Assembly (NCBI GenBank): GCA_035267045.1 | Contig: DATFMH010000238.1 | Span: 5,914-69,913, forward strand | Length of the DNA stretch: 64,000 nucleotides | Reading direction: 5' to 3' | Origin: Balneolales bacterium | Lineage (GTDB): Bacteria > Bacteroidota > Rhodothermia > Balneolales > DATFMH01 | In this document: piece after piece, positions 18,441 through 37,564 of the stretch | Layout of the letters: each line of letters opens with the position of its first letter | Numbering within the stretch: the first letter of the stretch is position 1 | Notes under the pieces: model-generated | Seen by the model: the letters and a program-made list of their open reading frames with translations, nothing else | The model's database searches: none | What the model was told of the DNA's origin: nothing | Made by a program: the position numbers and the translations under genes

Positions 18441-20156
18441 TTATACTTTTGGTTCTGTTTCAACATTGATCAACCCTGTTGCATCCGTTACACAACCTTT
18501 TGAGGCAGATGATACAAGCTGAGCATATTTATAGAGTGATCCGTTCTGTACCCTAAGTTGCGGTTGCTTCCATTTTTTCCTTCGTTCGTCCAATTCATCA
18601 TCAGAAAGGTCAACGGAGATCCTATGTTCAACACTGTCTATTGTTACCATATCGCCATCCTGAATCAGAGCAATCGGGCCACCCACCTGGGCCTCAGGTG
18701 TAACGTGACCTATTACAAAACCATGAGTACCGCCGGAAAAACGTCCGTCTGTTATTAAAGCTACACTTTTACTTAAACCGGCTCCAACTATGGCTGCTGT
18801 AATAGACAACATTTCGCGCATGCCGGGTCCGCCTTTCGGTCCTTCATAACGAATGACCACCACATCACCTTCATTAATTTTCCCATTTTGAATAGCTTCT
18901 AAACTATCCTCTTCTGAATCAAAGACACGGGCGGGACCGGTAAATTTATCACCTTCTTTACCTGTTATTTTAGCCACAGCACCTTCGGGGGATAAATTAC
19001 CATATAAGATATCGATATGGCCTGTATTTTTTATGGGATCTGATATTGGATGAACAATAGATTGATCTTCCAGGAGATCCGGTAACGTTTCCAAATTTTC
19101 TTCAAGTGTTTTTCCTGTTACCGTCAGGCACGATCCATCCAGAAAACCTTCCCGTATTAATAATTTCTGTACAGCCGGAACACCTCCGACATTATAAAGG
19201 TCTTCCATTACATATTTGCCACTGGGTTTTAAATCAGCCAGGTAGGGCGTTTTTTTACTAATATCCTGAAAGTCATCAATCGTAAAATCCACACCTGCCG
19301 TATGAGCCATAGCCAATAAATGAAGTACAGCATTTGTTGAACCACCCAGGGCTATGACAATGGTAACAGCATTTTCAAATGCTTTGCGGGTCATGATGTC
19401 AAGAGGTTTGATATCTTTTTTGAGGAGGTTATAAATAGCTTTTCCAGCCGCTTCACATTCTTTCAATTTCCTTTTGTTTTGAGCCGGTATTGAAGAGCTG
19501 TATGGTAAACTCATACCCATAGTTTCAATGGCGGAAGCCATAGTATTGGCCGTATACATTCCGCCACAAGCACCGGCACCGGGGCAAGCGTGATGCAAAA
19601 CCAGTTGCATTTCATCCTTATCAATTTCCTTCGACAGATATTGTCCATAAGATTCGAATGCTGAAACAATATCTAGTTTTTGTCCATTTAAATTACCGGG
19701 ATGTATCGTTCCGCCATACACCATTATAGATGGACGATTTACCCGGGCCATGGCCATAATAGATCCGGGCATATTCTTATCACAACCTGCAATAGTAATA
19801 TTTGCATCATACCATTGTGCTTTCATTACTGTTTCAATGGAATCGGCAATAATATCCCTGGAGGGTAGGGAATATTTCATTCCCTGGGTCCCCATCGAAA
19901 TGCCATCACTTACTCCAATAGTATTGAATATGAATCCAATAAGGTTACTGCTTTCCACACTATTTTTAATATGGGCGGCAAAATCGTTCAGGTGCATATT
20001 GCATGTATTGCCTTCCCAGCCGGTACTGGCAATTCCAACCTGTGCCTTATTCATATCATCATCAGACAGACCCACACCATAAAGCATGGCCTGTGATCCT
20101 ACCTGTGATTCAGCCTGTGTTAATCTCTTACTGTATTTGTTTAATTCCTCATTCAT
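18441..20156 (-). CDS. ilvD: dihydroxy-acid dehydratase
   Basis: 571 aa. IlvD/Edd signatures CDKNMPG and [12 protein letters not shown]-like ([14 protein letters not shown]). Confidence 0.95.
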
Positions 20157-20591
20157 ATTTCTGAAAAACCCTTCAACTATATAACTAAATGTTTAGATGT
20201 TTTAATAGGATGAAGCACAAAATCTAAGTCCTAATATGAATTTTTGTCTTCCTGGTTTAATGGCGTGACCAATTTACTTTCACCTTTCTGAAATAAAGTA
20301 ATTACAATAATTTATCTGGAAATATTTTCCCAACTAATTGAGGCGAAAAGGATTATGGCAGAAAAAGCCACTAAAAAATGAACAAAAATTGACTAAACGT
20401 TATCCAATTATTTTATAACTACAAATATAATGGATAAATGTATAATACAAATACAGATGATAGAATCAATAGGTAATTACAAATTAATTGATAAAAAAAG
20501 ATCAAGAAAAAAAATATGTTTTAAAAATGTACGTAATAAAATTAGAAAAGCGCTTCCAAGATAAAAATCAAAAAAAATCTAATAAAAACTA

Positions 20592-20620
20592 TAATTTCTT
20601 CTTGACACATAAGATCCTGT
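20592..20620 (+). promoter_or_regulatory. candidate sigma70-type promoter for the ilv-leu leader transcript
   Basis: TTGACA (20592-20597), 17-nt spacer, TACGTT (20615-20620). Confidence 0.35.
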
Positions 20621-20820
20621 TTAATACGTTAAGTACAGTTGGAAAAGTTAAATAAAGCAGTAATATCTTGGTCGATAATACATCATATCATGCATACAAT
20701 ATTCGCATTGACAGTATCATTACTGCCAAATGGGAAGTGTCTAAAAGTGATTTTCTGTTAACTGCTTTAGCAATTATTATATCCTCTATAATACTACGAC
20801 TATCGATTCTAACCCTATCT

Positions 20821-20892
20821 ATGGTCCTGGGAATTATTGTAGGAATAATCTCTGGCCTAATTCTACTAATTCTAATACGAATTATCAGCTAA
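20821..20892 (+). CDS. candidate Ile/Leu/Val-rich leader peptide of the ilv-leu operon
   Basis: MVLGIIVGIISGLILLILIRIIS is 23 aa, 16 of them I/L/V. The frame is open back to a TTG at 20668, giving a 74-aa ORF with 35 I/L/V residues. It ends 108 nt upstream of ilvB. Confidence 0.4.
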   Translation: MVLGIIVGIISGLILLILIRIIS

Positions 20893-20897
20893 CATAT

Positions 20898-20997
20898 CGC
20901 CAGAGGTTGTTCTACAATGATCAATTAAATTTCCAATAAAAAATGAACTTTGAAGAATGACCTCTGGCGGGAACGGTACGTCCCAAAAAACGAGGTC
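20898..20997 (+). promoter_or_regulatory. candidate attenuator / translational switch (alternative stems) between leader ORF and ilvB
   Basis: cgccagaggt (20898-20907) is perfectly complementary to acctctggcg (20960-20969). It can also pair with ctctggc (20850-20856) inside the leader ORF. gacctc (20959-20964) can alternatively pair with gaggtc (20992-20997), which overlaps the GAGG just 5' of the ilvB ATG. Confidence 0.35.
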
Positions 20998-20999
20998 TT

Positions 21000-22766
21000 A
21001 TGAATAATCAAGCAACACAACTTAAGAAACAACGCTTCGAAGGCAGTCAAGAATCATCTTATAATGAATATCAAGGTCAGGAACAGGTACTTTCCGGATC
21101 TGAGATATTAATTAAAACACTATTAGACCTGGATGTAGATACCATATTTGGTTATCCGGGTGGAGCAGTATTACCCATCTACGATACTTTATATCAAAAT
21201 GAAGAACTTCGCCATATTCTGATTCGTCACGAACAGGGAGGTACTCATGCCGCAGACGGATATGCAAGGGCTACCGGTAAACCCGGTGTTGTGTTGGTAA
21301 CATCCGGACCCGGAGGTACGAATACCGTTACAGGGATTGCAACTGCAGCAATAGATTCTATTCCCTTAGTTGTTTTTACCGGGCAGGTACCAACAAATAT
21401 GATTGGTAATGATGCCTTTCAGGAAGCTGATATTGTAGGTATAACGCGTCCTATTACCAAACAGAATTATCTTGTCAAGGATGTAAATGACCTGGAATAC
21501 ACGATACGGGAAGCTTTTCATATTGCAACGACCGGTAAACCGGGACCCGTACTGATCGATCTTCCCAAAAATATGGTAATGAGTAAAGGGATATATACAG
21601 GGAAGCGTAAAGTTTCTGTTCCCAGTTATCGCCCGGTTACGAAAGGGCATCACAGTCAAATAACTAAGGCAGCTGATTTACTTAGTAACGCAAAACGTCC
21701 TTTAATCTATGCCGGTGGTGGTGTTTTACGTGCCGAGGCATGGGAAGAGTTGACTGCTTTTGCAGAAAGGACGAATATACCTGTAACAACTACACTTATG
21801 GGTTTGGGATGTTTTCCCGAAAGCAAACCACAGTCTTTAGGAATGCTCGGAATGCACGGCACATATTATGCAAATATGGCAATGACCGAGTGCGATGTTC
21901 TTTTAGCCGTTGGTGCCCGGTTTGATGACCGGGTAACCGGACGACTGGATGGTTTTTCACCCAACTCACGTAAAATTCATATTGACATAGATCCATCCTG
22001 TATCTCCAAAAATGTTCCCGTTGAAGTACCGATTGTCGGTGATGTTAAAAATGTCCTCCCTAACATAGACAAGCATACCCAAAAACCCGATATAGATGAG
22101 TGGTGGACGTCGCTCAATAAATGGAAAAAAGAACACCCGCTGCAATCACCTAAAGCTGAAGATCATATTAAGCCACAACATATGATAGAGGCTATATCTG
22201 AAGTTACAAAAGGGGAAGCCATTGTTGTCACGGATGTAGGACAACATCAAATGTGGGCGGCTCAATTGTATAAATATAATCATCCCCGTTCGTTCATCAC
22301 TTCAGGTGGACTGGGAACAATGGGGTATGGTTTCCCGGCAGCAATGGGCGCGGCGGTTGCAAAACCTGATCGCCCGGTTGTCTGTATTACAGGGGATGGC
22401 GGCTTTCAGATGACATTGTTTGAATTGGCTACCTGTGTTGAAAATAAAATACCGGTAAAAATAGCCATTATGAATAACGGTTATTTAGGTATGGTCAGAC
22501 AATGGCAGGAATTATTCTTCGGTAAAAGATATTCACATACCAATCTTAAAAACGGGAACCCTGATTTTGTCAAACTCGCGGAAAGCTATGGTGCTGTGGG
22601 ATTAAGAGCCAGCAGGCCTGATGAAATGATGGAGGTACTGCAAAAAGCTATGGCCATCGATGACCGACCCGTTGTAATGGATTTTATAGTTGATGAAGAG
22701 GAAAATTGCTATCCGATGGTGCCCACCGGTGCAGCATTGAATGAAATGGTGGAGGGAGATCAGTGA
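21000..22766 (+). CDS. ilvB: acetolactate synthase, large (catalytic) subunit
   Basis: 588 aa. ThDP-binding motif GDGGFQM...NNG.LGMV and the typical N-terminal GYPGGA region. Confidence 0.95.
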   Translation: MNNQATQLKKQRFEGSQESSYNEYQGQEQVLSGSEILIKTLLDLDVDTIFGYPGGAVLPIYDTLYQNEELRHILIRHEQGGTHAADGYARATGKPGVVLVTSGPGGTNTVTGIATAAIDSIPLVVFTGQVPTNMIGNDAFQEADIVGITRPITKQNYLVKDVNDLEYTIREAFHIATTGKPGPVLIDLPKNMVMSKGIYTGKRKVSVPSYRPVTKGHHSQITKAADLLSNAKRPLIYAGGGVLRAEAWEELTAFAERTNIPVTTTLMGLGCFPESKPQSLGMLGMHGTYYANMAMTECDVLLAVGARFDDRVTGRLDGFSPNSRKIHIDIDPSCISKNVPVEVPIVGDVKNVLPNIDKHTQKPDIDEWWTSLNKWKKEHPLQSPKAEDHIKPQHMIEAISEVTKGEAIVVTDVGQHQMWAAQLYKYNHPRSFITSGGLGTMGYGFPAAMGAAVAKPDRPVVCITGDGGFQMTLFELATCVENKIPVKIAIMNNGYLGMVRQWQELFFGKRYSHTNLKNGNPDFVKLAESYGAVGLRASRPDEMMEVLQKAMAIDDRPVVMDFIVDEEENCYPMVPTGAALNEMVEGDQ

Positions 22767-23314
22767 ATAATTCAAATTCACAAAAATTAACAGGTAAAAG
22801 TGTAAACGTGGACTCACCACGTAAATCAAGACACACGATATCAGTATTGGTTGATCACAATCTAAATGCATTATCGCGGATATTGGGAATGTTCAACGGC
22901 CGGGGCTTTGATATCGATAGTATCAGCTTTGGCAAGGGGCAACAACCCGGATTGGCACGCATTACAATTACAACTCGTGGTGATAATAGCGTGGTGGAAC
23001 AAATAACAAAGCAATTACACAATGTTATTGATGTGGTAAAAGTCAAGGATCTGACTTTTGAGCCTTTTGTCGAAAGGGAATTGGCTTTGATAAAAGTGAC
23101 AGCTCCGGCATCACGACGATCTGAAATTATGCAGATCGTCAATGTCTTTCGGGCCAAGATAATAGATATCAGTCCTGATAAATTGACTATTGAAGTAACC
23201 GGTAACAGTGACAAAATAACGGCAGCACTTGGGATGCTTCGTCAATTCGGATTGGTCGAGGTAGCCCGAACCGGTAGCGTGGCACTCACAAGGGAATTTA
23301 CAGGTGATACCTGA
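22763..23314 (+). CDS. ilvN: acetolactate synthase, small (regulatory) subunit
   Basis: 183 aa. ACT domain (HTISVLVDHNLNALSRILGMFNGRGFDIDS). 4-bp overlap with ilvB. Confidence 0.92.
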   Translation: MNNSNSQKLTGKSVNVDSPRKSRHTISVLVDHNLNALSRILGMFNGRGFDIDSISFGKGQQPGLARITITTRGDNSVVEQITKQLHNVIDVVKVKDLTFEPFVERELALIKVTAPASRRSEIMQIVNVFRAKIIDISPDKLTIEVTGNSDKITAALGMLRQFGLVEVARTGSVALTREFTGDT

Positions 23315-23354
23315 GCCGATCTGTTGTTAAAAAGCTTTCAAAAAAAAATTCTAA

Positions 23355-24374
<1,020 letters not shown>

Positions 24375-24384
24375 GGATATAATT

Positions 24385-26004
24385 ATGCAAGCACCACACA
24401 TTGATTTGTTCGATACTACTCTGCGGGACGGGACTCAAGGTGAAAAAGTTGCTTTCTCTGCTGAAGATAAACTGAGAATTGCCGAGAGGCTTGATGAGTT
24501 CGGAATTCAGTATATCGAAGGCGGTTGGCCGGGATCTAATCCCAAAGACATGCTTTTTTTCGAAAAAGCAAAAGGCCATACTTTCAAAAATGCTAAAATA
24601 GTTGCTTTTGGAAGTACACATCGTGCCGACCGGAAGCCGGAAGACGACCCCAATCTTCAGGCTCTTGTAGAAGCCCGGACACCTGCGAATTCCATATTCG
24701 GTAAAAGCTGGCTTTTACATGTTCGCGACGCTCTTAAAATAACACCGGAAGAGAATCTTAAAATCATTTATCAATCTGTAAAATATCTGAAAGAACATGA
24801 CAGGGAAGTGATATATGATGCCGAACATTTCTTTGATGGTTATAAAGACAATTCCTCTTATGCCGTAGAAACCTTGTTGGCTGCTCAGGAAGGTGGTGCT
24901 GATGTTCTTGTATTATGTGACACCAATGGTGGTTCTTTACCGGACGAGATATCAAAAATTATCCGTTACGTTAAAAAAAATGTCGATACGCCATTAGGTA
25001 TTCATGCTCATAATGATGGTGAACTGGCGGTAGCTAATTCGTTGGCTGCCGTTCAAGCCGGATGTGTACATGTTCAGGGGACCATAAATGGTTACGGTGA
25101 GCGATGTGGGAATGCCAATCTGTGTTCTGTTACAGCTAACTTACAGCTGAAGTATGGTCGTGATGTTGTCTCTGATAAACAGCTTGAAAAGTTAAGCAAC
25201 CTTTCTCGATATGTAAGCGAGCTGGCCAATTTAAGTCAGGACAATAAGCTGCCTTTCGTCGGTTCGAGTGCTTTTGCCCATAAGGGTGGGGTGCATGTGA
25301 GTGCTGTCATGAAAAATTCATCGACGTATGAGCATTTGGATCCGGCTATCGTTGGTAATCGCCGCCGTGTATTGGTATCCGACTTATCGGGCAAAAGTAA
25401 TGTGATGTATAAATCCAATGAGTTGGGGATCGATCTGGAAGATAAACAGGAAAAATTACCTGCTATAGTAAAAAAATTGAAGAAACTGGAAAATGAGGGC
25501 TATCAATTTGAAGCAGCCGAAGCCTCATTTGAATTATTGGTCAGACGCATGACCGAACCGGTTAAAGATTTCTTTGCACTCGAAGGATTACGTGTGATCA
25601 TTGAAAAAAACGGGACAGGTAATTGTCGTTCTGAAGCTACAATACGCCTGAATGTGAATGGGCAAATGGAACATTGTGCCTCCGAAGGTAGCGGACCTGT
25701 TAATGCTTTGGATTGTGCCTTGAGAAAAGCGCTGAATCAGTTTTATCCGGAGATAGATTTGATGAAGCTTGCCGACTATAAAGTAAGGGTATTGAATGGC
25801 ACCGAAGGTACCGATGCAAAAGTAAGGGTATTGATCGAATCAAGTGATAGCAATGGTGAATCATGGGGAACAATCGGTGTTTCAGCAAATATCATTGATG
25901 CGAGCTGGCAGGCCCTGTCCGACAGTTTTAACTATTTCTTACAAAATCATTATAAGTCAAAAAAGAAGGAGCAAAAGTATGCTAAATCGACTATGGGATC
26001 TTAA
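24385..26004 (+). CDS. cimA: (R)-citramalate synthase (LeuA-related, with C-terminal LeuA_dimer regulatory domain)
   Basis: 539 aa. [21 protein letters not shown], and the C-terminal regulatory fold ([16 protein letters not shown]). The N-terminal pattern is typical of the CimA clade of the IPMS/homocitrate synthase family. A second, LeuA-type paralogue follows. Confidence 0.75.
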
Positions 26005-26116
26005 AGACCGACTATGCCACTATCGCAATCTATATAACCTGAATAATGTACTAAAAAGCATAATGGCTAAACATGTAAAAATTATCACCGAAACATAACA
26101 AGAAAATTTTGCAGGT

Positions 26117-27310
26117 ATGGAAAATCGAATCAGCATATTTGACACTACATTACGCGATGGTGAACAGTCGCCCGGTTACAGCATGAACCAGGATGAAAAA
26201 ATAAAAATGGCTCATCAGCTCGAAAAATTACAAGTTGATGTAATGGAAGCCGGCTTTCCGATTGCTTCTGAAGGTGATTTCCAGACAGTCAGGGAAATAG
26301 GGAAACAGATAAAAAACAGTACGGTCGCTGCTCTGGCACGTACAACTTCAGTCGATATAGAACGTGCTGCCAAATCACTTGAATATGCCAATAGGCCGCG
26401 TATACATACTTTTATTGCTACTTCCGATATCCATATGAAGTATAAATTGAAGAAAACGCGGGTAGAAGTAGTTGAATCGACTATTAAAGCTGTTGAACAG
26501 GCCCGGAAATATTGCGATGAAGTCGAGTTTTCAGCAGAAGATGCTTCCCGGAGTGATCCCGAATTCCTTTATGAAGTATTTACAGCGGCTATTGATGCCG
26601 GAGCCAGCATTATAAACGTACCGGATACCGTTGGTTATGCTCTTCCGTGGGAATATGGTGAACTCATCAAAAATATTCACCAAAACGTGCCGAATATTGA
26701 TAAAGCTATCCTCAGTGTTCATTGTCATAATGATCTCGGTTTGGCTGTAGCTAATTCTTTTGCCGGAATAAGAAACGGTGCCCTGCAGATAGAATGCACG
26801 ATTAATGGTATCGGTGAGCGAGCTGGTAATGCCTCTTTGGAAGAGATCGTGATGGCCATGAAAACCCGTCAGGCCGATATGACCGAGTACACAAATATTA
26901 AGACAGAAGAAATTTTCCCTGCCAGTAGTTTACTGGCTGAGATAACCGGTAAGGGAGTCCAGCCCAATAAAGCTATTGTTGGTGAAAATGCTTTTGCCCA
27001 TGAAGCCGGTATCCACCAGCATGGCGTTCTGAATAACCCGATGACTTACGAGATCATGACACCTGATTCTGTTGGTATTTCGGGTAACAGAATCGTTTTG
27101 GGTAAACATTCCGGCAGATTTGCGTTACGGAAAAAAGTGGAAGCATTGGGATTCGACCTGGATCATGATGAACTTGATGTCGTCTATCAACAATTTACCA
27201 ATCTTGCAGATCAACAAAAGATCGTCCCCGATGATGACATCCTGAATCTGTTGAATGGCAATGGTTATAACCGCTCGCAACAACACGGAATACAGGCTAA
27301 ATCAGCATAA
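26117..27310 (+). CDS. leuA: 2-isopropylmalate synthase, short form lacking the C-terminal regulatory domain
   Basis: 397 aa. DTTLRDGEQSPG, HCHNDLGLAVAN, GERAGNASLEE. It ends about 110-120 residues short of canonical LeuA, and leuC starts 41 nt later. Confidence 0.85.
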   Translation: MENRISIFDTTLRDGEQSPGYSMNQDEKIKMAHQLEKLQVDVMEAGFPIASEGDFQTVREIGKQIKNSTVAALARTTSVDIERAAKSLEYANRPRIHTFIATSDIHMKYKLKKTRVEVVESTIKAVEQARKYCDEVEFSAEDASRSDPEFLYEVFTAAIDAGASIINVPDTVGYALPWEYGELIKNIHQNVPNIDKAILSVHCHNDLGLAVANSFAGIRNGALQIECTINGIGERAGNASLEEIVMAMKTRQADMTEYTNIKTEEIFPASSLLAEITGKGVQPNKAIVGENAFAHEAGIHQHGVLNNPMTYEIMTPDSVGISGNRIVLGKHSGRFALRKKVEALGFDLDHDELDVVYQQFTNLADQQKIVPDDDILNLLNGNGYNRSQQHGIQAKSA

Positions 27311-27351
27311 TTTTTATAATTAATCACATTTATTAAAGGAGTTTTTTTACA

Positions 27352-28653
27352 ATGAGTATGACTCTCACAGAAAAGATATTGGCTAAACACAGCGGCCGTT
27401 CGATGGTAGATCCGGGTGAAACTGTCTGGATTGATGTCGATGTTCTTATGACACACGATGTCTGCGGGCCTCCAACAATATCTATCTTTCATAAAGAGTT
27501 TGGGGAAGAGGCCCGTGTTTGGGATAAAGACAAACTCGTAATCATTCCCGATCATTATATTTTTACCAATGATAAATATGCCAACAGGAATGTGGATATT
27601 TTAAGGGCTTTTGCCGCTGAACAGACCCTTCCGAATTATTATGATGTTGGTACCGACCGCTATAAAGGAGTATGCCACGTAGCACTCCCCGAAGAAGGAT
27701 ATACGCGTCCCGGTGAAGTACTGTTTGGTACGGATTCTCACACCTGTACGGCCGGCGCATTTGGCCAGTTTGCCACAGGTATTGGTAATACTGATGCTGC
27801 TTTTATCATGGGTACAGGTAAATTGTGGGTGAAAGTACCGGAAACCATGCGCTTTGAATTTGAAGGCGATCATTTGCCACCGTATATCATGGCAAAGGAT
27901 ATTATTCTCAAAGTGATCGGAGATATCGGGGTAGACGGTGCCACATACCGCACTATGGAATTTGCAGGTCCAGGTATCAAAGCATTGGATATAGAATCCC
28001 GCATGACACTTACTAATATGGTAATAGAAGCCGGTGGGAAAAATGGTGTAGTAGAGCCAGATGCTAAAACAGAAGAATATGTAAATCAAAGAACTGAGGT
28101 TAGCTATGAGTTAGTCCATAGTGATCCCGATGCCAGTTATCATAGTGTATATAACTATAATCTGGAAGAAATGGTCCCTATGGTTGCCAAACCTCACAGT
28201 CCGGATAACAAAGCCACCGCTGCTGAGCTGGAAGGTACCCCGCTTACACGTGCCTACATTGGTTCATGCACCGGTGGTAAGTTATCCGATTTTAAGGCGG
28301 CTGCTGAAATAATACAGGGCCATGATTTAGCAATCGATACATTTATCGTTCCTGCGACTACAGAAGTTGCTAAAGGTTTGTCGACGGAAAAAATAAACGG
28401 ACAAACATTAAAAGAGATATTCGAAGGAGCCGGTTGTAAGATTGGAAGAGCTTCTTGCGCCGCATGTCTGGGTGGCCCGGAAGATACTTTTGGACGATTG
28501 AATGGTAAGGAAGTTTGTATCTCTACCACCAATCGTAATTTTCCCGGCCGGATGGGATCGAAAGATTCGGAAGTATATCTGGCATCTCCATATACCGTGG
28601 CTGCATCCGCAGTGACAGGAAAAATTACAGATCCACGTCAATTTATCAATTAA
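27352..28653 (+). CDS. leuC: 3-isopropylmalate dehydratase large subunit
   Basis: 433 aa aconitase-family protein. Fe-S ligand regions DSHT, GSCTGG and CAACLGG. Confidence 0.93.
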   Translation: MSMTLTEKILAKHSGRSMVDPGETVWIDVDVLMTHDVCGPPTISIFHKEFGEEARVWDKDKLVIIPDHYIFTNDKYANRNVDILRAFAAEQTLPNYYDVGTDRYKGVCHVALPEEGYTRPGEVLFGTDSHTCTAGAFGQFATGIGNTDAAFIMGTGKLWVKVPETMRFEFEGDHLPPYIMAKDIILKVIGDIGVDGATYRTMEFAGPGIKALDIESRMTLTNMVIEAGGKNGVVEPDAKTEEYVNQRTEVSYELVHSDPDASYHSVYNYNLEEMVPMVAKPHSPDNKATAAELEGTPLTRAYIGSCTGGKLSDFKAAAEIIQGHDLAIDTFIVPATTEVAKGLSTEKINGQTLKEIFEGAGCKIGRASCAACLGGPEDTFGRLNGKEVCISTTNRNFPGRMGSKDSEVYLASPYTVAASAVTGKITDPRQFIN

Positions 28654-28668
28654 AAAATAGTAAATAGC

Positions 28669-29253
28669 ATGTCACAAGATATACTTAAAGGTAAAGCTTT
28701 TGTTTTAGGGAAGAATATCGATACCGATCAGATTATTCCGGCACAACATTTGGTTTATAGTTTAAATGATCCGGAAGAGCGTAAATTTTATGGGCGTTAT
28801 GCATTATCAGGGACTCCTTCGGAAGAATCAGGATTGCCTCAGGGGAATATCCCTTTGGTAGAAGATGACGCTTTTGAAAGTGAATTCAAGATCATTGTCG
28901 GCGGACCTAATTTTGGTTGCGGTTCCTCAAGAGAGCATGCACCTGCTGCTCTTCAAATAGCCGGTATTCAAGCGATCGTTTCACCAAGTTATGCGCGTAT
29001 TTTCTACCGAAACTCAGTAGACGGTGGATTTGTAATTCCTTATGAAAGTCTTGAGGATCTGAGTAAGGAAGTTCATACCAATGATGAACTGGAAATCCAT
29101 AAAAATGAAAATGTGCTTAAAAATATTACTCAGAACAAAACTTATAAATTAAAAGCTTTGGGAAGTGTAGAGGATATTGTTCAAGCCGGCGGAATTTTTG
29201 AATATGCCCGCAAAATGGGAATGGTCCCCAAAAATGAAAAGGTAGCAAGCTGA
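28669..29253 (+). CDS. leuD: 3-isopropylmalate dehydratase small subunit
   Basis: 194 aa. Swivel-domain motif [13 protein letters not shown]. Confidence 0.93.
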
Positions 29254-29255
29254 AG

Positions 29256-30368
29256 ATGAGTGAAAAGATTGTAAAGCAAATTACTGTACTACCTGGCGAC
29301 GGCATCGGTCCGGAAGTTACGGATCAGGCTTTAAGAGTACTTCACACTGCCGGAGAACTATTTAATGTGACGTTCGAATGCCAGGAGTTCCCATTTGGTG
29401 GAGCAGCCATCGACGCCTGGGGGGAGCCCATAAGTGAAGAATTGATAGAATCAGCGAAGAAATCCGATGCCGTTTTATTAGGCGCTGTCGGAGGATCCAA
29501 ATGGGATAATCAACCCAAGGATAAACGACCGGAAGCTGGTTTATTGGGTATTCGCAATGTCCTTGGATTATATACCAATCTTCGACCCGTTAAAGTCTAC
29601 GAACCTCTTTGTGATTCATCCACATTAAAGAAAGAAGTTATTGAAAAGGTTGATCTGTTGGTAGTCAGGGAATTGACCGGTGGCATTTACTTTGGCAAGC
29701 CTCGTTTTATCAAAACGGAGGGTGAGGAAGAACACGCCGTGGATACGATGGATTACCGGACTTCGGAGATTGAACGTATTGCTGTGGCTGCTTTTGAGGC
29801 TGCGGGTAAAAGAAATGGTAACGTTTGCTCCGTAGATAAATCCAATGTGCTGGATACCTCAAGATTGTGGCGAAAAACGGTGATCAATGTGGCGAAAAAC
29901 TACCCGGATATAGAATTGAGTCATATGCTCGTGGATAATTGTGCTATGCAGCTGGTGAGAAATCCCGGTCAGTTTGATGTCATCGTTACCGGAAATATGT
30001 TTGGTGATATCCTGAGTGATGAAGCATCCATGTTGACCGGATCAATAGGTATGTTACCATCCGCAAGTATCGGTAATGGTCCGGGCTTATACGAACCTGT
30101 ACATGGCTCGGCACCGGATATAGCCGGCTCGGGTAAAGCCAACCCGATAGCAGCCATAGCTTCGGTTGCCCTGTTATTCCGCTATTCGCTCAATATGAAT
30201 CCCGCAGCGAAAATCATTGAAGAAGCAATCGAAGAATTTTTGAATAAGGGCTTCCGAACAGCTGGTATAGCCGGGATGGATGAAGAAGCTTTGAATACCG
30301 TTGAAGTCGGGGATACCATTACCGGATTAATTAAAGAGAATGCTAACAAATTACAGGAGCAAGACTGA
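29256..30368 (+). CDS. leuB: 3-isopropylmalate dehydrogenase
   Basis: 370 aa. Motif [25 protein letters not shown]. Confidence 0.95.
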
Positions 30369-30369
30369 G

Positions 30370-31464
30370 ATGCCTGCGAACGTAACTTCAGATATTCAAA
30401 CGGATGTAATTAATGTGAATCCTGTTGAACACAGTCGGTTGCCGGGTGTTGATCTTAACAACCCCGGTTTCGGACGATTATTCGCGGACCACATGTTCAG
30501 CATGGAATACAAAGATGGGCAATGGCAAAATCCGGCGATTGTTCCATTTGACAAGTTAGAGTTCATGCCATCACTAACAGCACTTCATTACGGTCAGTCG
30601 ATTTTTGAAGGGATGAAAGCATTCCGAACAGATGACGGGACGATAAATATTTTCAGACCGGAGAAACATCATGAGCGGTTAAATAAATCCTGCCGGCGTT
30701 TGTGTATTCCCGAAATCGACCAGGATCTTTTCATGGAGGCTTTGCAAACCCTCGTAAAACTGGATCGGGACTGGGTTCCGGAGAAAAAGGGGAATGCCCT
30801 TTATATTCGTCCGCTTGTTTTCGGAACGGATACCCATATTTCGGTTTCCGAAGCTGAAACGTACCGTTTCTTGATCATGACTTCCCCGGTAGGTGCCTAT
30901 TATAAGGAAGGAATCAACCCGGTGAGATTGATGACATCGAGTCATTATGTTCGCTCGGCACAGGGCGGGGCAGGTAATGTTAAAACGGCCGGTAACTATG
31001 CCGCCAGTTTGTTGCCTGCAAAAAAAGCAAAAGAGAAAGGATTCACTCAGGTTTTATGGCTTGATGCAAAAGAACATAAATATATTGAGGAAGTCGGTAC
31101 GATGAACATCTTTTTTAAAATAGATGACCGGCTGATAACACCTCCTCTGGAAGGAACTATTTTAGGTGGTATAACGAGAGATTCTGTTATACAGTTAGCC
31201 CTTGAATGGGATGTAGATGTGGATGAGAGACATATTACTATCGATGAATTGTTCGAAGCCTCTGGAAAGGGATCGTTACAGGAGGCGTTTGGTACCGGTA
31301 CTGCAGCAGTTATATCCCCTGTGGGACGTATTAATCATAATGGCAGTGAGATAATACTTGATGAAAATCAAATCGGTCCGTTTGCACAACGTCTATACAA
31401 TGAATTAACCGGTATTCAATACGGTGAGGTTGAAGACCGTCATAATTGGATTTATTCAGTTTAG
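30370..31464 (+). CDS. ilvE: branched-chain amino acid aminotransferase (fold type IV)
   Basis: The ORF is open from 30340, but the ATG at 30370 lies 1 nt after the leuB stop and avoids the overlap. Motifs GNVKTAGNY and EEVGTMNIF. Confidence 0.9.
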   Translation: MPANVTSDIQTDVINVNPVEHSRLPGVDLNNPGFGRLFADHMFSMEYKDGQWQNPAIVPFDKLEFMPSLTALHYGQSIFEGMKAFRTDDGTINIFRPEKHHERLNKSCRRLCIPEIDQDLFMEALQTLVKLDRDWVPEKKGNALYIRPLVFGTDTHISVSEAETYRFLIMTSPVGAYYKEGINPVRLMTSSHYVRSAQGGAGNVKTAGNYAASLLPAKKAKEKGFTQVLWLDAKEHKYIEEVGTMNIFFKIDDRLITPPLEGTILGGITRDSVIQLALEWDVDVDERHITIDELFEASGKGSLQEAFGTGTAAVISPVGRINHNGSEIILDENQIGPFAQRLYNELTGIQYGEVEDRHNWIYSV

Positions 31465-31552
31465 TAAGTATGGAGATTTTTTAATGAATGATTTCCATCT
31501 ATCCTCACACATATAGAGTGACTCATCACTAAGGTCAGTCAACTCTATCTTA

Positions 31553-31588
31553 GGGAACAGACATGAAAAATCTGTTCCCTATTTTTTT
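31553..31588 (+). terminator. intrinsic terminator of the ilv-leu operon
   Basis: 9-bp perfect stem: gggaacaga (31553-31561) pairs with tctgttccc (31571-31579). Followed by T7 (31582-31588). Confidence 0.8.
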
Positions 31589-31590
31589 AG

Positions 31591-31670
31591 GATACGGCTG
31601 GGAAATAGAACGCGGATGAACGCAGATTGAGCGGATAAAAGAAGGAAAATGGAAACCGGAGACCGGAATA
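31591..31670. repeat. member of a short dispersed intergenic repeat family
   Basis: gatacggctgggaaat (31591-31606) recurs as gataggctgggaaat at 15-29. In reverse orientation its ends (attccggt ... cgttctattt) recur at 11802-11809 and 11824-11833. Internal cgcRgat units: gaacgcggatgaacgcagattgagcggat. Confidence 0.6.
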
Positions 31671-32291
31671 CGGAAAAACAGACCCGGGAAAAAATCCAAA
31701 TGCCAGATAATTAAACATCAACAAAAACGGTCTGGCTGTCATCACGAGGCCGAATGGCCGCGGTGATCCCCTTCTGTAGCATTGCCATACGTGTTATCAA
31801 TGGCAGGTGAAAAAAGCCAAATTAGCGCACTTGCCCTTGATTACGGACCCCACTTTCATCTCCCCCAGGGAAGGAACTTCAAAATGAACCCTTTGGGTTC
31901 TGCCTTTTTATCTCGTGATGGGGCTCTGCCCCTTCACGCAGAGAATGAGGCTCTGCCTCAAACTTGAAACCACAGGTCAGAACCCTGTGATGAGATATAA
32001 ATTTGAATAGCTTCGGGTGTAACCCGGAGAATAGATCAGTGATCAGTAAGCAGTTACAGTAAACAATGTGTTGGTTGCCAATATTCATTGCCCCGTACCT
32101 TCAGGCCGGGGATTAATCGAATTGACAAAATTTTAAAAAGGACTAAAGCCCTGACAATAAATGCTGTATTTTCTAACCACTGGCCTAAAGGCCAGGGCAA
32201 TTATTTGTTATTAAATAAAATTTGGTAAGATGATTGGTTACAGATTGTTCGGCTGTTCGTTCCAGAGTACGGAAACAATAGTTTTAATTTC

Positions 32292-32315
32292 TGCCTTCTG
32301 CCTTTTGCCTTTTGC
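32292..32315. repeat. short tandem repeat (TGCCTTY) x about 3.4
   Basis: tgccttc tgccttt tgccttt tgc, lying 29 bp 3' of the minus-strand galT stop. The core is related to the 11931-11967 repeat. Confidence 0.8.
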
Positions 32316-32343
32316 AAATTACTCATTGCTAATTGTAAAAGTC

Positions 32344-33396
32344 TTATACAATCTTCTTCTTGTAATGAACTTCGGGAAGGTTCCTCAGTTTCTCCGCACT
32401 AAGTTCGGCGGTAATATCCCGTTGCGGGTTGGCAAGCATCTCATATCCGACCATAAATTTTTTAACCGAAGCTGAACGTAGTAACGGGGGATAGAAATGC
32501 ATATGAAAATGCCATTCCGGGTGATGGCTACCATCCGTTGGAGCCGGGTGAAAACCGGCTGAATAAGGAAATGATATATTGAAAATATTGTCGTAACGAA
32601 TGGTTAATCTGCGAATGATATCAGCCAGGGAGGTTTTCTCGGAATCCGTGAGTTCGGTGAAATCGCCCAAATGCCGTTTGCTCATGAGTAATGTTTCATA
32701 AGGCCAAACGGCCCAGAAGGGAACTAGAACAACGAAATCGTCATTTTCGATGACAATACGTTCCTGTAATTCATTTTCCTTTTTTAAGTAATCACATAAC
32801 AGGCAACTTTGATGCTTATTCACATATTCAGTGAATTGATATTGCTCCTTTGAAGGTTCATCAGGAATCGTGTGCTGGGCCCAAATTTGTCCGTGTGGAT
32901 GCGGGTTACTGCATCCCATGATGGTCCCTTTATTTTCGAAGATTTGAACATAATTTATGTTATCGTGACTCCCAAGTACTTTATATTCCTCCGTCCAAAG
33001 GTCTACAACGTTCCGGATAGTCTCCGTCGACATTTCAGGCAGCGTAAGATCGTGACGTGGGGAGAAGCAAATAACCCGGCAAATCCCCTGTTCTCCTTCG
33101 GCAATAATCAGATCATCATTATTTATATCAGCTTCCGGAGTATTCATTTTTAGGGCACTGAAATCGTTGGTAAACACAAAAGTTTCAGGATAATCAGGAT
33201 TTATATCACCATCGGCACGCTTATTACCAGGACAAAGGTAACATCCCGGATCATATTTCGGTTTCTTTTCATCAGGAGTAGACTCTTCATGTCCCTGCCA
33301 GGGACGTTTGGCACGGTGTGGTGAAACCTGAATCCATTCTCCGGTTAATAAGTTATATCTTCTGTGTGGATGATCTTCAAAGTTAAAATCACTCAT
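32344..33396 (-). CDS. galT: galactose-1-phosphate uridylyltransferase
   Basis: 350 aa. Zn-site CYLCPGN and active-site [11 protein letters not shown]. Confidence 0.95.
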
Positions 33397-34583
33397 TTTG
33401 ATATCTCGCTTTGATATACAGTTGAGACGCCGTTTTCTATCTTTGTACGATAGATCTTTATGTTATTGCCGGTCTGTTCAGTGTATGATTTTTGTATCTT
33501 CTGTGCAAAATCTTCCACTTTATCTTTTTGGACTATATTAATTGTGCAACCACCAAAACCACCACCCATCATACGGGAACCGTAAACGCCTTCTATTTCT
33601 TTGGCAATATCAACAAGGATATCAAGTTCATTGCAGCTTACTTCATACTTATTTTTCAAACCGTCATGTGAGTCAAACATGCGTTGTCCAAACGAAATAA
33701 AATCCCCATTTATCAAATCCTGACAGGCATCATTAACCCTCTGGTTTTCTTCAACGACATATTCGCAACGTTTCAAAATTACGGGATTGAATTCCGTTTT
33801 ATGTGATTCAATCATTTCAAGATCTACATCGCGAAGACTGTTAACATCGGGGTAGTGACTATGCAATATTTTAACACCTTCTTCACATTGTTGACGCCGG
33901 ACATTGTATTCAGATGTGGCAAGATCGTGCTTTACATTACTATCACATAGAACTATCCGGAAATCATGATTGTCAAAGGGAAAATATTCGTAATCAAGAG
34001 AGCGGCAATCGAGCTTCAGGGCATGATTTTCTTTACCAAAAATATTTATGAATTGGTCCATAATACCACATTGCACACCAACAAAATCATTTTCTGCTTT
34101 TTGAGCCAGTTTGACTTTTGTGAGATTATCGATATTAAGGTTGAATACTTCCGATAAACCATAAATCAAACCACCCTCAATAGCCGCCGAAGAAGACATA
34201 CCTGCCCCGATGGGGATATTACCACCAAAAACGCAATCAAACCCCTGTAAGCCAATGTCGTTTTTTAATAATTGATCGACCACTCCCATAATGTAATTGG
34301 GCCATCCCTGCTCACTTTTAGCTATGGTGTTGGCGTTAACAATAAATTCAAAGTATTCATCGAGATTAGCAGCATAAAGTCGACAGGTATCGGTATTATT
34401 TGGAGCTAATCCGAGTAATATATATTTATCTATCGCAGCCGGTAAAACAAATCCATTATTATAATCAGTGTGTTCCCCAATAAGATTAACTCTACCCGGA
34501 GATTTTATGAATAACGGGTCAGTTTTAAACTCTTTTAAAAAATAATCTTGAATACGTAAATATAAAGGGTCTTGCTGTCTCAT
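33393..34583 (-). CDS. galK: galactokinase
   Basis: 396 aa. [13 protein letters not shown] signature and GHMP motif GAGMSSSAA. 4-bp overlap with galT. Confidence 0.95.
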
Positions 34584-34590
34584 TATTACT

Positions 34591-34857
34591 TTATTCTACA
34601 GTTGAATTACGAGTTAGCCAGATAAAAACGGCACCTGAGAGGAACATAAAGCCACCCCACCAGATATCCGGATGCAAATATTCTAAAACAGTACCGCTTT
34701 GGCCAGGATAATAAGCATTATATATGCCTGTTATACCGATAACCAGTCCTGTAAAAAATAATATCAGGCCTACAAAAAACCATATAGGTCTCATACCTTT
34801 AGTTTCCTCGGTATTATCATTTGTTGTTTCTGTTGAGATATTTGATTCTTCTGCCAT
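34591..34857 (-). CDS. small two-TM membrane protein of unknown function
   Basis: 88 aa. Acidic, Thr-rich N-terminus, then two hydrophobic helices. Packed between the symporter (15-nt gap) and galK (7-nt gap). Confidence 0.6.
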   Translation of the reverse strand: MAEESNISTETTNDNTEETKGMRPIWFFVGLILFFTGLVIGITGIYNAYYPGQSGTVLEYLHPDIWWGGFMFLSGAVFIWLTRNSTVE

Positions 34858-34872
34858 GAAAGGACTCCTATT

Positions 34873-36534
34873 TTACCAGAAATAAATATTGAGGGCAATT
34901 AATACAACACCGGAAATAATAGCAACAAATTCAGGTGTCTTATAAAAGGGACGTGGTTTGGTATCCACTTCATTTGTCAGGCCTTTAACTAAGCCTACCA
35001 GTTCTTCTCTGGATTTTTTCCGTGTGAAGAAGCTAACGATAATAGTTACACCAAAACATATTAACCAGGCCCACCATGCACGCCAGAAGTTTGCTGCCAT
35101 ATCACTCGATACATGTGAAAAGGAAATCGTATCCCTGGCAATCCAGCCAAATTTAACAGCGATGTACATTCCGAAAGAAGATCCCATTCCAGCCAAAAGG
35201 CCCCAAAAAGCACCATCTGCGGTAATCCAAACCAGGAACATACCAAGCAGCATAGTTGCGAACAGGGGGGCGTTCACCCAGGAAAATATAGCCTGCATAT
35301 AATCCATAATCGTAGGCATGCTTTTAGCCCAATAAGCGGTACCGACACTAATTACGATTCCGACCAAAGTAGCCGCTCTGCCCATCCATAAAAGATGATC
35401 TTTCGTTGCATCTTTATTTATGACAGCCTGGTAAATATCGTACGTCCATACCGTGTTAAAGGCACTTATATTACCTGCCTGACCCGCCATGAAACCAGCG
35501 AGCAGGGCAGTGACACCCAAACCAAGTAATCCATGAGGATAATACCGCTTAAGTAGAAGCGGTAAGGCCGAGTCATAATTAATATGGCTACCGGTATGCA
35601 TTAGATGGAATCCGGTGGAGGCGTCTTTTGAAAGCACCAATGCAATCAATCCACCCAGTACAACGATAAACGGCAGTGCCATTTTAAAAAATGAAGCAAT
35701 GATGGGAGTCATGCGTGCCGAACGCAGATCTCTGGCGGAAAAAGCTCGTTGTACAACCAGAAAATCTGTAGTCCAGTAACCGAAAGAGAGTACAAATCCC
35801 AGGCCAAGAACGATGCCGCCCCATGTTACCATCATACCATTATGAGCGGCATTACCTGATGTAGACCAAAGTGTTGCATATGATTGTGGTATGCGGGCAA
35901 ATATCTGATGAAAACTTCCGATATCAACAATACCTAATACTACGACTAAAAATAAACCAAACCAGATGAGAAAAAATTGGACAATTTCAGTAAATATTGC
36001 AGATAACAGGCCGCTCATTGTAACGTAAACAGCAACTGTAATAGCTGAGGCCCACATACTGATATGCCAGCTCCAGCCAAGGAATGTATGCATAACCAGA
36101 GCCATTGCATACAAGTTAATACCCGCAACCAACAAGGTCATGACTGCGAAAGAGATAGCATTAAGGACTCTGGTCTTCTCATCATACCGTAACTTCAGGT
36201 ATCCTGGAATAGATTTGATTTTACTACTGTAATAGAATGGCATCATATATATCGCCAGAAACAACATAGCCGGGACGGCTCCTATCCAATAGAAATGGGC
36301 GACATATACCCCATATTTAAAAGTATCACCGGTCATTCCCATTAATTCGAGAGCTCCCATATTGGCCGATAGAAAAGCGAGACCCGCAACCCACGAACTG
36401 TTTTTACGTCCGGCCAGGAAAAAATCATTTTCACTTTTCGTAAATTTTTTCAAATAAAAGCCAATACCGATGATAAAGCCGAAGTAAATAGCAATTACCA
36501 GCCAATCGGCAAAATTTAAAGCAAAAGATCCCAT
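34873..36534 (-). CDS. sodium:solute symporter family (SGLT-like Na+/sugar cotransporter)
   Basis: 553 aa, about 14 predicted TM helices. N-terminal FFLAGR motif region typical of the SSS family. gal operon context. Confidence 0.88.
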   Translation of the reverse strand: MGSFALNFADWLVIAIYFGFIIGIGFYLKKFTKSENDFFLAGRKNSSWVAGLAFLSANMGALELMGMTGDTFKYGVYVAHFYWIGAVPAMLFLAIYMMPFYYSSKIKSIPGYLKLRYDEKTRVLNAISFAVMTLLVAGINLYAMALVMHTFLGWSWHISMWASAITVAVYVTMSGLLSAIFTEIVQFFLIWFGLFLVVVLGIVDIGSFHQIFARIPQSYATLWSTSGNAAHNGMMVTWGGIVLGLGFVLSFGYWTTDFLVVQRAFSARDLRSARMTPIIASFFKMALPFIVVLGGLIALVLSKDASTGFHLMHTGSHINYDSALPLLLKRYYPHGLLGLGVTALLAGFMAGQAGNISAFNTVWTYDIYQAVINKDATKDHLLWMGRAATLVGIVISVGTAYWAKSMPTIMDYMQAIFSWVNAPLFATMLLGMFLVWITADGAFWGLLAGMGSSFGMYIAVKFGWIARDTISFSHVSSDMAANFWRAWWAWLICFGVTIIVSFFTRKKSREELVGLVKGLTNEVDTKPRPFYKTPEFVAIISGVVLIALNIYFW

Positions 36535-36565
36535 TCAGTTACTCCTTATATTCAGGGTTAATTGA

Positions 36566-37564
36566 TCAAAAAATATAGTTACTACAATTTTGGAAATCAG
36601 GTTTACCATTAATAACACTCAAAGTCAGGGACCAGGTATCTGTTGCACCTGATTCCAGATACGGACATTCATTTCTGGCTACTGCTTTTTGGAGAGAATC
36701 GGGTCGGCCGTTAGTGGGTTCGAGTCCGACAGTCAAATGTTTATTACTGTTATGATCAGGCCAACCGCCATAGCAGAGCCAAAGTCCCAGGAAGGGTATT
36801 TCACTGGTATTGAAGCTGAATAAAATAGATTCATTAGTATCGGGTTTGTAGATGCCAGCGCATCCTTCGTGTAATTTGTTGGTAAAGATTTTAATGGCAT
36901 GATTCAATTGTTTGCTTTGAACACAGGAATAATTTGTGCTGTTATCCAGATACGGCCATGAAAGAATGTCTCCATACTTCCCAATACTTTCATTTGAAGA
37001 ACCATTTACAAAAACATCTGTTATCTCTTCTCCAATTAGTATTTGATTCCCTTGTTCAACATTTAACAGGGGATGGGCTGACCACAGGTACCGGTACCCG
37101 TAATCTGATTTATTAGATAATTGATAGGAAATATGAATCTGGTTTTTATTAATAGATATTTCCTTATTAAAATTATAATCCAGGTTAACCCCATCGATGG
37201 ACAGCGTAAGAGAATCTTTGTTTATTTCATAATTCCACGGACGTGACCACAATTCACCGTGATCCGGCAAAAATGTCTCTTGCTTATGGTTATTTCCGGT
37301 TTTGAAAAAATAAGATTCTTCAATAGTAGGAAAACATTCATCAAAACCACTGGTATCATACTTATCAAAAGAGTCGCCAAAGGCAGCCTGATGGTACGGT
37401 GATTGTGGTTCTTGTAAAAATTGACTTCCTGTTTTCTTGTTATGCAGTTCAATCATTTTACCACCTATAGCTGGCAAAAAAATAATATTCAAAAAATCGT
37501 TTTCCATACTCACATAATCACAACCATTTTGAGTATAGCTTTCGATGGTTACATTCTTATTCAT
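36566..37564 (-). CDS. aldose 1-epimerase (galactose mutarotase-like) superfamily protein
   Basis: 332 aa. A beta-sandwich-type sequence with PDHGELWSRPW and WSAHPL motifs. First gene of the gal operon. The assignment rests mainly on context. Confidence 0.5.
   Translation of the reverse strand: MNKNVTIESYTQNGCDYVSMENDFLNIIFLPAIGGKMIELHNKKTGSQFLQEPQSPYHQAAFGDSFDKYDTSGFDECFPTIEESYFFKTGNNHKQETFLPDHGELWSRPWNYEINKDSLTLSIDGVNLDYNFNKEISINKNQIHISYQLSNKSDYGYRYLWSAHPLLNVEQGNQILIGEEITDVFVNGSSNESIGKYGDILSWPYLDNSTNYSCVQSKQLNHAIKIFTNKLHEGCAGIYKPDTNESILFSFNTSEIPFLGLWLCYGGWPDHNSNKHLTVGLEPTNGRPDSLQKAVARNECPYLESGATDTWSLTLSVINGKPDFQNCSNYIF

Follow-up and report, generated by a model that had tools for sequence, protein, structure and literature searches.

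The branched-chain amino acid operon that begins with ilvB in the 64,000-nucleotide stretch of Balneolales bacterium DNA analysed here (contig DATFMH010000238.1; the whole stretch is referred to as the window) is probably controlled by a ribosome-mediated leader-peptide attenuator that acts on the ilvBNC-leu-ilvE genes and is specific to the Balneolaceae. The element is located in the spacer between ilvD and ilvB. It comprises an open reading frame (ORF) crowded with Ile, Leu and Val (I/L/V) codons, which is predicted to be translated, and four RNA segments, the last of which lies immediately upstream of the ilvB start codon. Segment 2 can pair with segment 1 inside the ORF or with segment 3, and segment 3 can instead pair with segment 4; the resulting helices are named 1:2, 2:3 and 3:4. 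A preliminary description of this DNA had proposed an I/L/V-sensing leader with a promoter of its own and an alternative-pairing switch, undescribed in this lineage, and this core is now backed by comparative data. The features of the window on which the argument relies are the following (positions are those of the window).

20602–20630, forward strand: leader promoter, with the −35 hexamer TTGACA (20602–20607), a 17-nt spacer and the −10 hexamer TACGTT (20625–20630); predicted transcription start near 20637
20668–20892, forward strand: leader ORF with TTG start, 74 codons and TAA stop; 35 I/L/V residues with the start counted as Met
20821–20889, forward strand: putative sensing window, i.e. 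the last 23 codons (MVLGIIVGIISGLILLILIRIIS) with 16 I/L/V codons, including five of the eight CUA Leu codons of the ORF; flanks segment 1
20842–20856, forward strand: segment 1, GGAAUAAUCUCUGGC, inside the ORF; partner of segment 2 and nearly identical to segment 3; core ctctggc at 20850–20856
20898–20913, forward strand: segment 2, CGCCAGAGGUUGUUCU, beginning 5–6 nt past the stop; partner of segment 1 or segment 3; cgccagaggt at 20898–20907
20954–20969, forward strand: segment 3, AGAAUGACCUCUGGCG; pairs with segment 2 (15–16 bp) or, via GACCUC (20959–20964), with segment 4; acctctggcg at 20960–20969
20969–20984, forward strand: small hairpin, GGGAACGGUACGUCCC, enclosed by helix 3:4
20992–21002, forward strand: segment 4, GAGGUC (20992–20997), and the ilvB start codon AUG (21000–21002), covered when helix 3:4 forms
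21000–31464, forward strand: operon proposed to be regulated, with ilvB, ilvN, ilvC, two HMGL-family synthases (cimA/leuA-like), leuC, leuD, leuB and a class IV aminotransferase (ilvE), as read from the ORF list and Pfam domains

Re-reading of the sequence places all four segments exactly where the preliminary description had put them. The alternative pairings exist as well, but the lengths of about 9 bp for helix 1:2 and 10 bp for helix 2:3 were too short, since each helix comprises about 15 bp: helix 1:2 joins 20842–20856 with 20899–20913 in 15 pairs including G-U, and helix 2:3 joins 20898–20913 with 20954–20969. Folding of 20800–21010, a check suggested at the outset, gives a z-score of −3.3 that none of 200 shuffles equals. 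The dominant feature is a 15-bp helix of 20898–20912 with 20955–20969, beside which the small hairpin is formed. The TTG-initiated frame with its 74 residues and 35 I/L/V was re-read and stands. Three distances needed correction: the ORF does end within the spacer ahead of ilvB, with a gap of 107 nt (not 108) between its stop codon and the ilvB ATG; the divergent ilvD/ilvB spacer measures 843 bp instead of 840; and the TTGACA-17-TACGTT promoter is present, with its −35 hexamer at 20602, about 10 nt away from the previously given position 20592.

The evidence that carries the assignment comes from a comparison of 14 Balneolaceae ilvB loci, consisting of the window and 13 fetched loci. The relatives encode IlvB homologues that are 72–82% identical, and their contigs were fetched by 12 exact-protein look-ups. 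Among the matches listed in a contig scan seeded with full IlvB, L001 was the only Balneolaceae locus, and scanning metagenomes with an IlvB fragment of 50 aa, in part specific to the lineage, added, among the matches listed, only L089, which has the same sequence as L086. Because the relatives were picked by IlvB alone, the sample is unbiased with respect to the leader. The IlvB of the window itself matches, at 100% identity, a protein from a 'Balneolales bacterium' metagenome-assembled genome, and its closest named relatives belong to Fodinibius, Aliifodinibius, Halalkalibaculum and Rhodohalobacter, all Balneolaceae. Fodinibius sediminis (L084) and Halalkalibaculum sp. DA3122 (L087) are among the relatives in which the element is present. 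The divergent ilvD-ilvB arrangement is kept in most of the relatives' loci.

All 14 loci keep the open frame, the position of its stop, the I/L/V run and all four segments. The full set of aligned features is present in 13 of them, the exception being L085, which differs in the promoter stretch, the start and the 70–86-codon frame. For segments 1, 2 and 3, an ungapped alignment was made from 16-nt windows anchored on invariant cores. In the aligned upstream regions, segment 2 reads GCCAGAGGUUAGAA, with a CAG.GGU core that is invariant in every locus, and segment 3 reads UUCUGACCUCUGGC, followed by GGGWAAASUAUAUCC. Helix 1:2 is paired in 91.0% of the alignment cells as compared with 34–51% in slid registers, with four pairs changed on both sides; for helix 2:3 the corresponding values are 90.5%, 34–57% and five pairs, and for helix 3:4, scored in a fixed register, 74%, 22–44% and four pairs. 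For none of these helices was the covariation score reached by any of 500 shuffles. The exchanges extend to a three-way co-change, in which segments 1, 2 and 3 read UUCU/AGAA/UUCU in most relatives and GAAU/GUUC/GAAU in the window, L081 and L169, while other changes (in L084, L172 and L085) preserve both helices via wobble pairs or double substitutions. In two Rhodohalobacter loci, both strands of helix 3:4 have changed, and UUUUUUCCUC pairs with GAGUAAAAAA. In the comparison of related ilvB upstream regions that the preliminary description had called for, the I/L/V run is conserved and compensatory changes are present. Unguided RNAalifold predicts helix 1:2 on the alignment that contains segment 1; when the alignment is cut back so as to begin at segment 2, helix 2:3 is predicted instead and the start region is left unpaired. 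Forcing segment 2 to pair upstream or downstream shows the 1:2 and 2:3 states to be nearly equal in energy, with differences ranging from −8 to +8 kcal/mol and in most cases smaller than 4 kcal/mol.

The GGGWAAASUAUAUCC stretch that follows segment 3 (20969–20984 in the window, and the aligned positions) is conserved in sequence and forms only 3–6 weak pairs in most relatives, and L085 has a different, stronger hairpin in its place. Pairing within this small hairpin is not reliably countable owing to register shifts in the alignment. In L085 (2286–2504; IlvB P0107, 73% identical), segments 1–4 differ in sequence yet still pair. Here, an additional ORF of 72 codons, provided with a GGAGG motif, intervenes between the switch and ilvB and overlaps the ilvB start (ATGA), and the L085 switch appears to control the start site of this 72-codon ORF.

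Promoter and reading frame are conserved along with the RNA segments. In the relatives whose loci cover the promoter region, TTGAC is nearly invariant and is followed 17 nt downstream by a TAnnnT hexamer; both are absent from the divergent L085. A generic promoter scanner missed the leader promoter because TACGTT matches the consensus at only three of six positions. An in-frame TTG or GTG start at the aligned position and a frame of 70–86 codons are present in 13 of the 14 loci (again with the exception of L085). The start codon is TTG in most loci and GTG in two, and it is thus its non-AUG character that is conserved. Two starts had originally been offered, the TTG at 20668 and the only in-frame ATG at 20821, which would give a 23-aa peptide with 16 I/L/V residues. 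The counts hold for both, but only the TTG is conserved, whereas the position of the ATG is not, and on alignment the conserved start is accordingly placed at 20668, giving leaders of 70–86 codons. Within the frame, a polar N-terminal third with a conserved x-S/T-K/Q-x-x-H motif, encoded by a conserved CA-rich stretch after the start (20668–20700 in the window, and the aligned region; consensus CAnACAAnCAUCACAUA), precedes a tail rich in I/L/V and Ser. The 3' end of the frame is nearly invariant, with the consensus ..CUA AUU UCU GGC AUU CUA AAC CUA AUU CUA AUU AUU AGC UAA, and the UAA stop is found 6–9 nt before segment 2 in all 14 loci. Among Markov-simulated spacers, 3.2% contain an ORF of 74 codons or more, while the combination of 60 or more codons with an I/L/V share of 47% or more did not arise in any of 3000 simulations.

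The composition of the frame points to the amino acids made by the downstream enzymes. The 13 leaders with the conserved start contain 28–41 I/L/V residues each, of which 15–19 fall within the last 25 codons; in L085, where the frame is cut off at the locus edge, the remaining 52 codons include 21 for I/L/V, 12 of which fall within the last 25. The choice of Leu codons is equally skewed. Across 38 window genes, no Leu codon is used less often than CTA (65 of 1529, or 4.3%), yet it accounts for eight of the 12 Leu codons of the window leader and for eight of its last ten, which bears out what had been said of this codon before, including its minority status in ilvB. Pooled over the 14 leaders, CTA makes up 40% of the Leu codons as compared with 0–8% in three ilvB genes. 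Such an enrichment would fit a sensor tuned to a scarce isoacceptor tRNA, in parallel to the enterobacterial leu leader, for which rare CUA Leu codons in Salmonella and E. coli were reportedly described by Carter, Bartkus and Calvo in 1986. With regard to geometry, segment 1 is flanked on either side by Ile and Leu codons that fall within the footprint of a ribosome, for which a typical size was assumed.

The element seems to be confined to the family. A covariance model, R1, was built from 13 leaders and finds a single copy in the window, at 20841–21002; among 172 loci, R1 copies were found only in ilvB loci of Balneolaceae, with the divergent L085 being missed. Outside the Balneolaceae, no convincing homologue was found by a scan for I/L/V-rich windows in 80 ilvB upstream regions or by a pattern search of 168 loci, and inspection of five Rhodothermales ilvB loci revealed no counterpart. 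Rfam yielded no match at gathering score in the whole window, and a permissive search of 20100–21100 gave only hits to unrelated families with E values of at least 0.4. In the literature searched on leader peptides of this lineage and on attenuators of Bacteroidetes/Chlorobi, no description of the element was found.

In the proposed mechanism, a sigma-70-type promoter at 20602–20630 would start a leader RNA of approximately 360 nt. Ribosomes would then initiate at the TTG at 20668 and translate 74 codons, about half of them for Ile, Leu or Val, of which the last 20 or so, with the rare CUA codons, flank segment 1. When charged Ile, Leu and Val tRNAs are ample, the ribosome would reach the UAA and leave, upon which segment 1 could pair with segment 2, the segment that is transcribed next to it. 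Segment 3, thereby freed, would pair with segment 4 and bury about 10 nt before the ilvB AUG, which corresponds to the OFF state. This burial should block initiation at ilvB in a genome that hardly uses Shine-Dalgarno motifs, and Rho could then terminate the untranslated message. When the tRNAs are scarce, the ribosome would instead stall, at the earliest about 12 nt ahead of segment 1 and at the latest on the last sense codons. The stalled ribosome would hold segment 1 off segment 2, allowing a 15-bp, fully Watson-Crick helix 2:3 to form, and segment 4 and the AUG would be left open in the resulting ON state. Stalling would thus select the fold, and the output would be translational.

In the preliminary description, the OFF state had been ascribed to a ribosome that sits at the stop codon and covers segment 2, leading to helix 3:4. 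While the four-segment switch logic as such is supported by covariation and by RNAalifold, this particular route was dropped: a 14-nt mask after the stop favoured helix 3:4 over helix 2:3 in only about half of the loci. Given this result, the OFF state more plausibly arises from helix 1:2 re-forming behind an unstalled ribosome.

A translational output is suggested by the location of segment 4: in all 14 loci, including those with altered sequence, it is found no more than about 15 nt ahead of the next start codon downstream. The duplex of segment 3 with the start region has an energy of −10.9 kcal/mol as compared with −3.6 kcal/mol for shuffled start regions, and this complementarity beats the shuffles (z ≤ −2) in ten of the 14 loci. 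In every locus, positions −15 to +4 are predicted to be more accessible in the 2:3 state than in the 1:2 state, the mean probabilities of being unpaired amounting to 0.56 and 0.36, respectively. A conventional transcriptional outlet was looked for in parallel. No intrinsic terminator was found by a terminator scan of the forward strand of 20100–21100, in agreement with the original statement that no U-tract terminator follows, and in none of the 14 loci is segment 4 followed by a U-run; instead, the ilvB AUG and coding sequence follow. In the window, motifs resembling a Shine-Dalgarno sequence precede only ten of 38 genes (25 nt upstream, lenient test), with clear GAGG or GGAGG only at ilvB and ilvN, which suggests that initiation in this Balneolales genome is Bacteroidia-like and independent of Shine-Dalgarno pairing. 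The overlap of segment 4 with the GAGG before the ilvB ATG is real, but since such motifs are rare in this genome, the GAGG is probably not a working Shine-Dalgarno sequence, and it is the start region as such that is covered. Initiation in Shine-Dalgarno-poor Bacteroidia is reported to be tuned by mRNA structure (PMC6847099), and ribosomes of Balneolaceae may, by analogy, behave like those of Bacteroidia. Together with the rarity of Shine-Dalgarno motifs, this means that covering the start region could plausibly suffice as the output. The likeliest output would be occlusion of the ilvB start, possibly accompanied by Rho polarity. The narrower proposal, namely that attenuation occurs purely at translation initiation, with stalling on a long, TTG-initiated, Ile/Leu-saturated leader setting the burial of the ilvB start in a lineage that barely uses Shine-Dalgarno pairing, is a serious possibility that we put forward tentatively.

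Alternatively, the same switch could have a primarily transcriptional output, with start hiding being secondary or irrelevant. With helix 1:2 formed, early ilvB transcription would then be stopped by Rho, loaded on the untranslated ilvB start and on the RNA that links segment 2 to segment 3, or by a terminator that lacks a U-tract. This linking stretch (22–56 nt) indeed contains little G in any of the 14 loci (pooled sequences: 8% G, 23% C) and resembles Rho loading sites in this respect, but it is short compared with typical Rho sites of about 70–80 nt and, being looped in one state and free in the other, is a poor discriminator. As no U-tract terminator is present, transcriptional control would require a factor. 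Precedents exist in Rho-dependent leader-peptide systems (tna; suggested also for actinobacterial cys leaders, PMC1262725). A simple terminator scan of 21001–41000 gave 18 matches versus 17 expected, a test unable to discriminate, and the missing excess of canonical terminators over these 20 kb may mean that the termination signals of the lineage are atypical. A purely Rho-based device would, however, not require segment 4 to be near the start codon, where it is found throughout the 14 loci. Taking both sides into account, we regard a mainly transcriptional output as unlikely.

Several points weigh against the attenuator with start occlusion as laid out above. The compensatory changes stem from few independent events, mainly in the clade of the window, L081 and L169 and in L085, and the covariation statistics are therefore not to be over-read. 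The complementarity between segments 3 and 4 is weak in four of the 14 loci (L086, L088, L171 and L172), and the accessibility gap is modest in some loci, for example 0.65 versus 0.58 in the window. A ribosome at the stop codon masks few nucleotides of the 15-bp helix 2:3, the remainder of which still folds in silico in about half of the relatives, and the OFF state would thus, according to these folding models, depend on folding kinetics. Moreover, at 70–86 codons the leader is far longer than the classical 14–32 codons, and its first hydrophobic block, which contains Phe and Ala, resembles a membrane helix; ribosomes stalling there would spare segment 1. Conceivably, the long hydrophobic nascent chain might have an extra role, such as slowing translation or membrane targeting. 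Finally, mutation of the putative regulatory codons in the ilvB leader of Streptomyces coelicolor is reported to have had no effect (PMC1262725), from which it follows that a leader-like appearance is not proof of function.

The length of the ORF, unusual for a leader, also raises the question of whether it encodes a functional protein, some 75 aa long and hydrophobic, that would span the membrane with two helices and be co-transcribed with ilvB, in which case the stem would be a stabilising or processing hairpin and the I/L/V content would follow from hydrophobicity in an AT-rich genome. The N-terminus is polar and conserved, and the first hydrophobic block with its Phe and Ala would suit such a protein, but the middle of the peptide is poorly conserved (38% mean column identity, many indels), and the last 45 residues, when pooled, consist of 58% I+L+V and 15% Ser with less than 3% F+W+Y+M, a scarcity of aromatic residues and Met that is unlike ordinary membrane helices. 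Gene callers have occasionally annotated the frame: among 5.8 billion proteins, 12 predicted ORFs carry the same N- and C-terminal motifs, three of them named 'hypothetical protein' and nine unnamed. Searches with three leader peptides against Pfam and NCBIfam returned only weak, sub-threshold matches to unrelated domains of unknown function (DUFs) and membrane-protein families, and no leader-peptide family. A membrane protein would not account for the use of the rarest Leu codon of the genome or for the conservation of the last 20 or so codons at synonymous positions in the alignments. Likewise, a hairpin at a gene end needs neither the co-variation of segment 1 with segment 2 nor that of segment 3 with segment 2 and the ilvB start. 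The ORF furthermore occurs only before ilvB, with one R1 match in the 64-kb window and none in more than 150 non-Balneolaceae ilvB loci. A membrane protein in place of a leader is thus highly improbable.

Just as remote is the notion that the conserved RNA (the 2:3 hairpin and GGGWAAASUAUAUCC) is a riboswitch-like regulator of the ilvB start that binds a protein or ligand, with the ORF being incidental: conserved yet weakly paired sequence such as GGGWAAASUAUAUCC can mark a binding site, and the actinobacterial LEU element has been argued to be protein-bound and not sensed by ribosomes (PMC1262725), but no Rfam family matches, the loop of helix 2:3 varies freely in length (22–56 nt) and sequence and leaves little space for a ligand pocket, and the conserved frame, stop position, I/L/V and CUA content and segment 1 pairing would be left unexplained.

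At the level of the locus, ilvD (18441–20156, reverse strand) and ilvB (21000–22766, forward strand) diverge from a spacer with 29% G+C. The two HMGL-family synthases of the operon are adjacent, one (24385–26004) with and one (26117–27310) without a LeuA allosteric/dimerisation domain, and the pair fits a citramalate synthase and an isopropylmalate synthase in either order. In L172, a 90-codon ORF without Pfam match is called between ilvB and ilvN (2966–3238). Between the ilvD and ilvB promoters, about 50 nt upstream of the leader −35 hexamer, a short palindrome, (A)AAGCGCTT(C), is found at 20546–20557 (core AAGCGCTT at 20548–20555) and may be a candidate transcription-factor site; GAAGCGCTT is present at a similar place in L001, L081, L088, L170, L171 and L172, and not in L083, L084 and L086. 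The sole terminator-like match in the spacer is on the reverse strand at 20355–20371 (GTGGCTTTTTCTGCCAT followed by a T-rich tail), in the sense of ilvD and about 200 nt upstream of its start. On the ilvD side, i.e. on the reverse strand, no conserved I/L/V ORF that could represent a second leader was found in the window, L001, L081 or L169.

The leader with its four segments can be compared with several known systems. The classical attenuators of enterobacterial branched-chain amino acid operons are ilvL (ilvGMEDA), ivbL (ilvBN) and leuL (leuABCD). As in these, an upstream ORF is rich in codons for the end products, the helices 1:2, 2:3 and 3:4 are mutually exclusive, the stop codon is located a few nucleotides before segment 2, and stalling is predicted to lead via helix 2:3 to an active operon. 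In contrast, helix 3:4 of the Balneolaceae element is no GC-rich hairpin with a U-tract and overlaps the ilvB start region; since it is thus not an intrinsic terminator, the element fails the defining output of the classical attenuators. The leaders also differ in length (70–86 versus 14–32 codons) and in their start codon (TTG or GTG versus AUG), and ilvL, ivbL and leuL show no sequence or profile similarity to the Balneolaceae leader.

With respect to its predicted output, the element is closer to ermC, cat and cmlA, in which the default fold pairs the downstream start region and a ribosome stalled in the leader frees the start, with no terminator involved. The start region of the Balneolaceae ilvB is likewise predicted to be paired by default and freed by leader stalling without a terminator. 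The signal differs, being an antibiotic together with a specific nascent peptide in ermC, cat and cmlA and, presumably, a shortage of charged Ile, Leu and Val tRNA read at many codons in the Balneolaceae; erm leaders have two-hairpin layouts and short peptides, unlike the element described here. In tnaC-tnaA, too, a leader ORF without intrinsic terminator is present and the position of the ribosome decides on downstream expression. The tna system senses free tryptophan via the nascent peptide, and it is a ribosome stalled at the stop codon that denies Rho access; in contrast to the Balneolaceae element, it has no four-segment alternative pairing.

Leader peptides before ilvB that act with terminators are known from Corynebacterium ilvBNC (PMC11857589) and the Staphylococcus aureus ilv-leu operon (PMC5794164), and further ones have been predicted (PMC1262725). 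These actinobacterial and Firmicutes leaders share with the Balneolaceae element an ilvB gene in first position of a branched-chain amino acid operon, a short ORF with Ile/Val/Leu runs and alternative hairpins. They end in a hairpin with poly-U (PMC1262725), whereas the Balneolaceae element has no terminator, and they come from a lineage other than Balneolota, without sequence relationship. The actinobacterial LEU element before leuA also combines a leader ORF with a codon run, a pairing that covers the ribosome-binding region and the absence of a terminator (PMC1262725). In LEU, the Shine-Dalgarno box is paired directly with the run of Leu codons, at the base of a pseudoknot, and the authors of that study favour a protein ligand (PMC1262725). 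In the Balneolaceae element, by contrast, segment 1, which bears the codons, has the intermediate segment 2 as its partner, and sequestration of the start is left to a third segment, without need of a pseudoknot.

Taken together, the Balneolaceae most likely combine the sensor of the classical attenuators with another output, in that the start of the first gene would be covered instead of transcription being terminated. To our knowledge, nearly all documented cases of leader-peptide attenuation, a textbook mechanism, come from Proteobacteria, Firmicutes and Actinobacteria, and an intrinsic terminator is almost always part of them. The element would extend this form of regulation to the Balneolota, for which no cis-regulatory RNA of an amino-acid operon was found in the libraries and literature searched. 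As a computational sign of an RNA with two states, the three-way covariation among these segments (1, 2 and 3) is unusually clean, and for annotators there is a conserved, unannotated ORF along with an RNA element (R1) to be added upstream of ilvB in Balneolaceae. If attenuation indeed operates purely at translation initiation, the four-segment attenuator logic would have been moved onto start-site occlusion. Given the small number of Shine-Dalgarno motifs in the genome, the element would then represent a natural switch for studying initiation that is independent of Shine-Dalgarno pairing, and a test bed for the regulation of such initiation in the Fibrobacteres-Chlorobi-Bacteroidetes (FCB) group.

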